Shown here in pieces: positions 57,031 through 58,279 of a stretch of 64,000 nt of DNA (positions are counted from its first letter, which is position 1; the number at the start of each line of letters is the position of its first letter). This DNA comes from an uncultured Gammaproteobacteria bacterium. GTDB lineage: Bacteria > Patescibacteriota > Patescibacteriia > Magasanikbacterales > GWA2-37-8. The stretch is taken from assembly GCA_964355175.1 (NCBI GenBank), contig CAYHBZ010000002.1, positions 268,537-332,536 of the forward strand, given 5' to 3'. A program made the position numbers and the translations under genes. The notes beneath the pieces are model-generated. The model had not been told where the DNA came from. It made no database searches and was given only the letters and a program-made list of their open reading frames with translations.

Positions 57031-57141
57031 GTATGCCTGCGTCCCACTGCCCGCTTTTGGCGAGTGGGACTGCTTGACGGTGGTCGGCCGTCTACTTCTT
57101 GGTGCTGCGGCTTGGTGGCGTACTCGGGGAGGAGGCGGGAT

Positions 57142-57879
57142 CTACTTACAGACACCGTCCACGCATTTGCCTTTGCATTTCACCCCGCAAGCACCGCAGT
57201 GGTTCGGGTTGTCCTTGATGTTGGTTTCACAACCATCGATGTCAATGCGACCGTTGCAGTCGGCGTAGCCGATCACACATTGTCCATCACAGTCCCCATA
57301 GCAGCCACGGGTGATGATGTGGTTGCCCGAGCACTTGCGACCACAACGGCCACAGTTGTCGGGGTCCCACCACCTGTCAGTGCATTCGGAATCGCAGATT
57401 TCAAGATCCTGATCCGCGGCAGTATCGCAGGTTTCTTGGCAGTGCCCAAAGGTGCAGAACTGGCCGATTTTACAAGCAAGTCCACACTCGCCGCAGTTGT
57501 TCAGATCCCAGCTTGTATCGACACAGGAGCCCTTACACGAGAGTTGGTGTTTCGCGCACGAGCACGACCCTCCATTACACCGCGTTTCACCGGTGCAAGT
57601 GTTCTCGCAAACCCCGCAGTTCGCGTCGTCGTAGAGCGGGTTGATGCAGGCACCGTTGCAGAGGATCCACCCCTCACTGCACTCGAGTTCCTTGGGGGTA
57701 GGGCATGAGACCTCTTTGGTAGCCGTCGTGTCTTCCTCCGTGTCCTGGGACCAGTTGTTGCTGTCCGGGTTGGTGGTTTCCGAGCTGTCCACGGAATCAG
57801 ACCCTACGCCATTTCCATCGACACAGCAGCCGACACAGCAAAGGACCACGACCAGGAACAGGATATGCGTGTAGCGCAT
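57142..57879 (-). CDS. lipoprotein-like secreted protein with four tandem ~40-aa Cys-rich repeats (core DxxNCGxCGxxC), G+C-rich
   Basis: SD GGAGG 7 nt upstream of the ATG at MRYTHILFLVVVLCCVGC (signal with lipobox-like LCCVGC). Repeats: ...DDANCGVCENTC..., ...DLNNCGECGLAC..., ...DPDNCGRCGRKC..., ...NPNHCGACGVKC.... About 38 Cys in 245 aa. Stop TAG. The ORF-track start 25 codons upstream was rejected in favour of the SD-supported ATG. Confidence 0.6.
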   Translation of the reverse strand: MRYTHILFLVVVLCCVGCCVDGNGVGSDSVDSSETTNPDSNNWSQDTEEDTTATKEVSCPTPKELECSEGWILCNGACINPLYDDANCGVCENTCTGETRCNGGSCSCAKHQLSCKGSCVDTSWDLNNCGECGLACKIGQFCTFGHCQETCDTAADQDLEICDSECTDRWWDPDNCGRCGRKCSGNHIITRGCYGDCDGQCVIGYADCNGRIDIDGCETNIKDNPNHCGACGVKCKGKCVDGVCK

Positions 57880-58279
57880 GAGATACCTCCGACACTTTGG
57901 AGCAACCAGCCTTAGCGAACACTTGTCGCTTGGGCTAATCACCGAATTGCACACTTACTTCGTCTTGTGCGCAATTTGATTAAACATTTCTGTCGAACCA
58001 AATTACGCACAAGATCTATTGCTTTTATAATTGTAAAGAACAAATTTAAAAACTCTCGTATTGAGAGAGTTTTATTATACTATAAAGGTATATAACTAAG
58101 TGGAATTTTTACCTACGGTCTCTCTCAAACCCTGGGTAAATACGGTTTTCCACTATAGGTTAATTATTCAATTAACAAATCAGTATAGCATAAAATAGAG
58201 GTTTTGTCAAGGTGTTGGCCTTTATTTTGGCTACAGTTGGCTAAAATTTAATGATAGATTTAATATATCTATGTAGTTC

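Follow-up and report, generated by a model that had tools for sequence, protein, structure and literature searches.

Why does a genome of about 40% GC carry, beside its rplJ-rplL operon, a short GC-rich islet that encodes a protein crowded with cysteines? The islet lies in a 64,000-nucleotide (nt) stretch of contig CAYHBZ010000002.1 (hereafter “the window,” meaning this whole stretch) from a member of Candidatus Magasanikbacteria, which belongs to the candidate phyla radiation (CPR; Patescibacteria). Otherwise the window holds unremarkable CPR core genes, among them those for UvrA/C, RF-1, S2, EF-Ts, glycolysis enzymes, and aminoacyl-tRNA synthetases. We find that the islet contains a minus-strand gene under purifying selection for a 245-amino acid Stig1-like protein, and that public records annotate the opposite strand instead. 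The best explanation of its product, which we favor with some reserve, is that it serves outside the cell as a binding or stalk protein held by a lipid anchor and is encoded by an accessory gene whose family is found mostly in Myxococcota and at higher GC.

A maintained minus-strand gene opposite an annotated shadow frame

The region where the two strands compete contains the following features.

57142–57879, minus strand: coding sequence (CDS) of the 245-amino acid Stig1-like Cys-rich protein, with its ATG at 57879 and its stop codon TAG at 57142–57144
57886–57890, minus strand: Shine–Dalgarno (SD) sequence GGAGG, 6 nt 5′ of the ATG; TGGAGG is kept in the related loci L001 and L078
57022–57708, plus strand: shadow open reading frame (ORF) of 228 amino acids, antisense to the Cys-rich CDS and annotated by the NCBI and ENA gene calls

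The preliminary description of this region gave positions 57036–57960, which are those of the GC islet and not of the CDS. Its placement of the gene next to rplJ-rplL is confirmed, with the two arranged divergently and 568 nt between their start codons. A longer version of the Cys-rich ORF (270 amino acids) would begin at an upstream GTG, but this extension is not conserved in relatives, whereas the SD sequence and the ATG are.

Three allelic variants of the gene were compared, namely that of the window, that of L001 (encoding protein P0001), and that of L078. The two relatives share 75–85% amino acid identity with the window protein (75% for P0001). The L078 allele was recovered by searching with the shadow-ORF protein, and its gene call is likewise the antisense frame. 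Among these variants, the ratio of nonsynonymous to synonymous substitution rates (dN/dS) in the minus frame is 0.17–0.29 at a dS of 0.38–0.47. Third codon positions account for 57 of 110, 49 of 80, and 60 of 127 of the differences, and 36 of 37 Cys residues are kept relative to L001. In the same variants, dN/dS for the plus-strand frame of 228 codons is 1.2–1.26; position 1 of its codons is position 3 of the Cys-rich gene. Therefore, the minus-strand gene is real and selectively maintained, and what the annotations call on the plus strand is a shadow frame of it. The possibility raised beforehand, that the Cys-rich ORF might itself be a shadow frame, thus turns out to hold in the converse direction.

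That the plus-strand ORF is nevertheless the true gene is scarcely credible and already contradicted by these ratios: although automated calls pick it in all four public copies covering the region and the antisense frame is likewise long and open in L001 (220 codons), a Pfam scan gave no match for it, its only two database relatives are both antisense to Stig1-like genes, its GTG start falls inside the 3′ arm of hairpin A (described below) with no SD motif directly upstream on inspection, and it is the minus frame that has 8,352 homologous clusters.

The public assemblies L071, L072, and L074 are 100% identical to the window and L073 is 99.9% identical; they include a 953,736-bp NCBI contig. 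The shadow ORF is called in L071 and L073 (database copies P0318/P0164). Because public calls annotate this ORF instead, a search of 5.8 billion clusters gave no exact match to the 245-amino acid protein. The wrong strand is annotated in the NCBI and ENA records and in one of the two related contigs, and GC-rich genes of this type may be systematically under-represented in databases for AT-rich genomes, which would bias any census of the family.

Architecture and probable role of the protein

The CDS divides into an export signal, a linker, and four repeats.

57826–57879, minus strand: predicted signal peptide, residues 1–18, ending in a lipobox-like C-V-G-C (from sequence heuristics)
57706–57825, minus strand: acidic Ser/Thr/Asp/Asn-rich linker, residues 19–58 (from net charge, low structure-prediction confidence, and indels among variants)
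57145–57705, minus strand: four Cys-rich modules (from [NH]CGxC[GE]xxC motifs and the AlphaFold2 model)
57556–57705, minus strand: module 1, residues 59–108, motif at residue 87
57427–57555, minus strand: module 2, residues 109–151, motif at residue 128
57277–57426, minus strand: module 3, residues 152–201, motif at residue 175
57145–57276, minus strand: module 4, residues 202–245, motif at residue 227

The four Cys repeats reported earlier are borne out. The module region holds 33 Cys in 187 residues, and the modules measure 42–50 residues with 10, 8, 8, and 7 Cys. Their core, previously called an invariant N-C-G-x-C-G-x-x-C, is less uniform than that. The strict form occurs in two of the four modules (NCGECGLAC and NCGRCGRKC). 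All four fit the looser [NH]-C-G-x-C-[GE]-x-x-C, the other two being NCGVCENTC and HCGACGVKC. The acidic Ser/Thr/Asp linker was also described correctly: residues 20–58 (39 amino acids; S7 T6 D6 E4 N4) carry a net charge of -9, and the linker is hypervariable with indels across the three variants. At the N terminus, MRYTH (with Arg2 and His5) precedes a 12-residue hydrophobic core (mean Kyte–Doolittle value 3.3), followed by L-C-C-V-G-C-C. By sequence heuristics, this positively charged n-region and strongly hydrophobic core would fit the signal peptide expected of a secreted Stig1 protein.

An AlphaFold2 model built from a 49-sequence alignment has a mean per-residue confidence score (pLDDT) of 81, with values of ~50 for residues 1–58 and 79–97 by 10-residue block for residues 61–245. 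Where confidence is high, the model shows a string of short beta-hairpins that are paired in each module. Structure searches found only weak resemblance to EGF, TNFR, EphA2-CRD, SCARF1, and Pfs25 rods, and significant similarity was not reached.

The family assignment is firm. The protein passes Pfam PF04885 (Stig1) at 51.8 bits (E 1.2e-13; gathering threshold 24.1) with three stretches, the best of which places residues 107–148 on model positions 42–83 of 85. It scores 97.7 bits (E 5.6e-28) against NCBIfam NF041328, the MXAN_6577-like cysteine-rich protein, narrowly under the curated cutoff of 100. Its relatives score 105.6 (P0001) and, for two Labilithrix proteins, 119.3 (P0007) and 102.1 (P0040). 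Named homologues, at ~27–38% identity, come from Labilithrix, Myxococcales, and “Deltaproteobacteria,” with one moss protein, and many carry the spurious name “Tryptophan synthase alpha chain.” The earlier suggestion of a Myxococcota-type Cys-repeat family is well founded in these matches.

In an exhaustive HMMER search, 8,352 cluster representatives matched at E<=1e-3, of which 269 reached E<=1e-30; many of the matched representatives are 1,000–5,000 residues long, with up to 26 matched stretches. When nine of the best-matching representatives were scanned with Pfam, five passed Stig1; one of the nine has ASH/Ig-like and lamin-tail domains, and another combines Stig1 with fibrinogen-C. Such architectures are typical of extracellular proteins, and the Stig1-type module is thus a frequent component of the proteins that bacteria place outside the cell. 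Literature searches on bacterial Stig1 and MXAN_6577 proteins yielded nothing relevant.

The protein therefore adds a further member, from an unusual host, to a known and very large family and is not a new kind of system. What the locus adds is the wrong-strand misannotation, a hot spot with a conserved structured 3′ element, and persistent GC-rich single-gene islets. With NF041328 proteins it shares the same Cys modules (C-x3-C-x8-9-NCGxCGxxC...; DCNG...DGCE...NCGxCG), a lipoprotein-type N-terminal signal, and repeats as the sole recognizable domain. It differs in having 245 residues and 4 modules instead of ~400 residues and 7–8 modules, in falling 2.3 bits below the cutoff with a noncanonical lipobox, in its identity of only ~30–37% to the named members, and in its host, a 40% GC and presumably monoderm CPR bacterium as opposed to high-GC diderm Myxococcota.

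Two better-studied systems offer looser comparisons. In plants, the secreted and Cys-rich STIG1 acts as ligand of a pollen receptor-kinase ectodomain and also binds phosphatidylinositol 3-phosphate (PMC7059789). The window protein, which would be secreted too, is likewise Cys-rich, and it matches the Cys-rich C-terminal half of the Pfam model. However, it repeats the Stig1 core (model positions 42–83 of 85) and does not reproduce the domain architecture of the plant proteins, it comes from a bacterium and is probably anchored, and the plant function is not transferable to it. In Myxococcus TraA, Cys-rich repeats of another family have been proposed to form a rigid stalk on which a binding surface is presented (PMC3325183). 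TraA, EGF, and TNFR rods resemble the arrangement proposed here for the window protein as extracellular tandem arrays of small disulfide-rich modules, which is an analogy of architecture and not membership. The TraA repeat model TIGR04201 has no match in the window protein at E<=0.1, and, unlike TraA, the protein has neither a PA14 or other head domain nor a MYXO-CTERM.

We propose that a Sec signal peptide exports the protein and that Cys18 of C-V-G-C is probably lipidated, which would anchor it in the cytoplasmic membrane's outer leaflet. The flexible, acidic, and fast-evolving linker of ~40 residues would then hold out a rigid rod of ~185 residues. In this rod, four disulfide-knotted Stig1-type modules would present a binding or spacer surface toward a partner outside, such as a host cell, the matrix, or a protein. 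We favor this arrangement because of the extracellular architectures in the family, the lipoprotein signals of homologues, the AlphaFold2 model, and the envelope-themed accessory locus described below, and because of the analogy with the plant STIG1 ligand and the TraA stalk repeats. The roles of effector, adhesin, or toxin named in the preliminary description are conjectural.

Several points weigh against such an anchored rod. The lipobox fails the canonical pattern [LVI][ASTVI][GAS]C in both forms applied (PROSITE PS51257 and G+LPPv2), since a Cys occupies position -3 (and here also -4). The 64-kb window contains no Lgt, LspA, or Dsb/VKOR gene, and CxxC-rich motifs could in principle bind metal. 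A terminator separates the sole strong upstream promoter from the gene, whose expression is a prediction only. Experimental function is on record for no bacterial family member, and the literature search on MXAN_6577 came back empty.

The lipobox is where the evidence divides most evenly. The LCCVGC noted in the preliminary description is present and conserved in all three variants, each of which matches a pattern relaxed for Cys at -3; its status as a lipoprotein signal by canonical patterns did not stand. One alternative, unlikely in our view but deserving serious weight, is that signal peptidase I cuts the precursor (e.g., after V-D-G) and releases a soluble secreted protein that acts as a distant signal, effector, toxin, or inhibitor. 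This would fit the noncanonical lipobox, the small size of the protein, a Cys-dense fold that suggests stability outside the cell, and the precedent of plant STIG1/GRI, which are soluble secreted ligands (PMC7059789).

Cleavage by signal peptidase I is harder to reconcile with the junction itself. The window, L001, and L078 all have G17-C18 unchanged, and the G-C-C junction is kept in the three variants even though the sequence just after it varies. Homologues carry canonical lipoboxes, and in alignment A2 Cys18 shares its column with the lipobox Cys of P0003 (AAGC); others, read by eye and at a comparable distance from the N terminus, are P0004 (SFGC), P0005 (LGAC), P0007 (VAAC), and P0040 (VLAC). 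Moreover, tethered lipoproteins typically have, as here, a flexible acidic linker of some length that follows the lipobox Cys without a gap.

A second alternative, which we consider quite unlikely, is that the CxxC-rich modules bind Zn, Cu, or an Fe-S cluster, making this a metal-binding or redox protein that is not disulfide-knotted. The Cys density and the four C-G-x-C motifs invite this idea, as does a Zn-ribbon-like CxxC protein encoded in another GC-rich islet of the window. Many CPR bacteria also inhabit anoxic water, in which disulfide formation is more difficult. On the other side, the predicted export signal at the N terminus and the lipoprotein signals found across the family point outside the cell, Pfam groups the domain with secreted Cys-rich proteins, AlphaFold2 gives confident EGF/TNFR-like hairpin modules without metal, and inspection of the sequence reveals no His/Asp pattern typical of metal sites.

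If the protein is indeed lipid-anchored, its position would be of some consequence. Cultivated CPR bacteria known so far live attached to other cells, and to our knowledge little is understood of all but very few CPR surface proteins. Being strongly conserved, encoded at a strain-variable locus, and probably both tethered and rich in disulfides, the protein is a reasonable candidate for host or matrix contact.

A variable cargo site and its noncoding elements

The gene sits within a segment that varies among related genomes, between two fixed neighbors.

56925–58275: variable segment of ~1.35 kb; homology to L004–L011 stops at 56876–56924 and resumes at 58222–58315
56208–56915, plus strand: UMP-kinase-like (amino-acid-kinase-family) gene, convergent with the Cys-rich gene
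58298–58457: L10 leader (Rfam), 5′ of the divergent rplJ-rplL

The gene order exonuclease VII, kinase, rplJ, rplL, and a 746-amino acid gene on the minus strand is kept in eight related genomes. In two of them (L011 and L009) the spacer between kinase and rplJ measures 171–240 nt, into which only the L10 leader fits. The spacer spans 834–5,245 nt in the other six (L004–L008 and L010), with a different cargo each time. The Stig1-like gene is absent from the syntenic site in all eight genomes, and none of the cargo is Stig1-like. The cargo of L006 (1300–3050, GC-rich) comprises an SPFH/band-7 protein and a Cys-containing lipoprotein, the cargos of L007 (4500–4900, GC-rich) and L005 each include a small membrane-anchored protein, and the insert of L004 at this spot (3300–3800) is also GC-rich. 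The Stig1-like gene is thus an accessory gene in a hot spot of envelope-related cargo between kinase and rplJ.

Two ideas about this site were set aside. L072 had seemed to be an “empty-site” strain, but its contig merely begins inside the islet. Carriage by a mobile element was also considered, and no relative of the gene appeared in viral contigs or, by tblastn, in phage and plasmid collections.

The best match of the kinase (92% identity) is in a Candidatus Magasanikbacteria metagenome-assembled genome from Lac Pavin, which is what assigns the host to this group. Its next-best matches, at 42–54% identity, are in DPANN (Nanoarchaeota, Aenigmatarchaeota, and Woesearchaeota) and CPR bacteria, which suggests an archaeal-type enzyme common to DPANN and CPR.

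The CDS is surrounded by structured noncoding sequence.

56922–56953: bidirectional intrinsic terminator, common with the convergent UMP-kinase-like gene
56969–57028, minus strand: hairpin A of the 3′ untranslated region (UTR), a near-perfect palindrome of ~60 nt, conserved in L001, L078, and L005
57041–57070, minus strand: hairpin B of the 3′ UTR, GTCCCACT...AGTGGGAC, conserved in L001, L078, and L005
57006–57016: TCAAATTGCGC, 11 nt within hairpin A, with a perfect inverted copy at 57969–57979 within the upstream palindrome
57963–58014: palindrome of the 5′ leader with 24-nt arms (57963–57986 and 57991–58014)
58182–58210, minus strand: sigma-70-like promoter, TTGACA-17-TATACT after TG (11/12 match)
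58049–58073, minus strand: intrinsic terminator downstream of that promoter
58049–58210, minus strand: candidate small RNA or attenuating leader of ~130 nt (promoter, structured body, and terminator)

Hairpins A and B form an element of ~115 nt that lies at 56959–57075 in the window, 6736–6857 in L005, and 877–958 in L001. The 3′ UTR folds far more stably than its shuffles (z = -7.9), and two stem positions that differ between the window and L005 do so compensatorily, as judged by eye from the alignment. L005 is from a different species and carries the element at the same locus beside a different cargo gene. An nhmmer search found the element only at the kinase-rplJ locus (window, L005, and L001) and nowhere else in the window or the compared loci. 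Its interpretation as a repeated cassette boundary was consequently dropped, as it is a single-locus element and no similar repeats flank the cargo in relatives. A test for integron-type cassettes also failed, with no repeated attC-like site and no recombinase in the neighborhood.

Upstream, the 15-nt inverted repeat reported earlier (57964–57978 and 57999–58013) is real but longer than stated, being contained in a palindrome whose 24-nt arms are 83% complementary. By inspection, the palindrome is not followed by a U-run and therefore is not a terminator. It is absent from the leaders of L001 and L078, which share another 5′ leader; a short motif of that leader apparently also occurs in L003 (by eye). 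The candidate ~130-nt RNA has a folding z of -4.2; it matches nothing in Rfam, and related loci lack a counterpart. Rfam searches of the leader and 3′ UTR gave subthreshold chance matches only.

The upstream and 3′ elements may regulate the gene (as the preliminary description took the upstream repeat to do), mark recombination sites, or both. A strong version of the second option is that the 11-bp inverted repeats are recombination sites and the segment, comprising the gene and its structured 3′ element with the promoter outside, is a mobile or invertible cassette through which expression is switched or the gene exchanged. We regard this as very unlikely, notwithstanding several suggestive facts. 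The TCAAATTGCGC pair sits exactly at both composition boundaries, and an inverted match of 11 nt was reached by only 6 of 2000 shuffles of two 100-nt boundary zones, which were, however, chosen after the repeat had been seen. In addition, homology among the variants starts just 5′ of the SD sequence and runs through the structured 3′ element, L005 has that same element next to another cargo gene, and the locus is a cargo hot spot. However, no recombinase is encoded nearby, the 3′ element is confined to this locus and not found at other islets, flanking repeats of this kind are missing around the cargo of relatives, and L001 and L078 lack the upstream palindrome. The four public copies, two of them partial, also show one sequence in one orientation.

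GC composition and the origin of the islet

The islet proper (56977–57976) has 55.6% GC with sharp edges, compared with 40.4% for the window. The GC content at third codon positions (GC3) of the Stig1-like gene is 0.70, against 0.26–0.46 (about 0.37) in core genes. The GC-richness reaches 40–120 nt into both UTRs before it collapses and is therefore a property of the segment and not of amino acid usage. Relatives outside a small CPR clade lie on contigs of 54–71% GC, and a metagenome scan for close relatives produced three distant matches only, on contigs of 64–70% GC. Because most named family members are from Myxococcota, horizontal acquisition from a higher-GC lineage would be the simplest origin.

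The gene is foreign in composition for an AT-rich CPR genome, as the preliminary description proposed, but its tacit corollary of a recent import is weakened. Polarized third-position changes among the three alleles number 35 from GC to AT and 31 from AT to GC, whereas 79% GC-to-AT would be expected of a gene drifting to the GC3 of its host (binomial P = 1.4e-6); the numbers are small and the polarization uses parsimony on an unrooted triplet. The composition thus gives no sign of decay.

Three other GC-rich genes of the window bear on this point.

44821–46077, plus strand: gene for a 418-amino acid Rossmann-type “amino acid dehydrogenase-like” protein (GC 0.58, GC3 0.64)
59584–59985, plus strand: gene for a 133-amino acid Zn-ribbon-like protein with four CxxC pairs (islet 59534–60125; GC3 0.68)
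14272–14658, minus strand: gene for a 128-amino acid Cys peptide, between rpmE/RF-1 and rpsB (islet 14120–14766; GC3 0.78)

The first of these, flanked by genes for a PemK toxin and a 7TM histidine kinase, has syntenic orthologues of 50–72% amino acid identity in L075 (5001–6218), L076 (5001–6344), and L077 (5001–6182). Their GC is 0.58–0.61 and their GC3 0.62–0.70, compared with a GC3 of 0.24–0.43 for flanking genes in L075 and L076 and 0.45–0.63 in L077, a higher-GC genome. The 418-amino acid gene is persistently GC-rich and anciently syntenic, and is not a recent import. Something besides recency keeps at least some transcription units GC-rich.

The other two islets are absent from relatives or not traceable in them. 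The 133-amino acid protein has subthreshold Pfam matches only, and its gene lies between rplL and the convergent 746-amino acid gene. The corresponding gap is just 55–202 nt in L005, L007, L008, and L009, so the 133-amino acid gene is specific to this genome. The 128-amino acid protein, which starts with a hydrophobic segment and has a cluster of 7 Cys toward its C terminus, is a singleton cluster in the public collection. The preliminary description had suggested looking for co-occurrence of this gene at 14.3 kb with the Stig1-like gene. The two have in common that each is a GC-rich islet, but the peptide has no Pfam match and no Stig1 motif.

We raise tentatively, and hold to be possible though doubtful, that the Stig1-like gene is among a set of single-gene units kept GC-rich (GC3 0.62–0.78) in a 40% GC genome. 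This suggestion is based on the balanced third-position changes in the three alleles and on the 418-amino acid orthologues, which stay GC-rich down to 50% identity. If true, it would imply a gene-specific force undescribed for CPR genomes, which might be biased gene conversion acting locally where recombination is frequent or else selection on mRNA, for example against A/U-rich toxin cleavage sites. A literature search on GC islands in Magasanikbacteria found nothing relevant. The pattern itself is unexplained, and persistent GC-rich islets of this kind warn against using composition alone as a clock of horizontal transfer.

Other genes of the window are recorded here as separate observations. 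The PemK/MazF-type toxin gene at 44354–44719 (plus strand) lies directly 5′ of the 418-amino acid gene, as it does in L076 and L077, and an AbiEii nucleotidyltransferase toxin gene is found at 627–1292 (plus strand). The gene at 17105–24319 (plus strand) encodes a giant surface protein of a type common in CPR genomes, with 2,404 amino acids and with CarboxypepD_reg, Big_5, and fn3 domains; its GC content at second codon positions is unusually high (0.50), and its GC3 is low (0.29).

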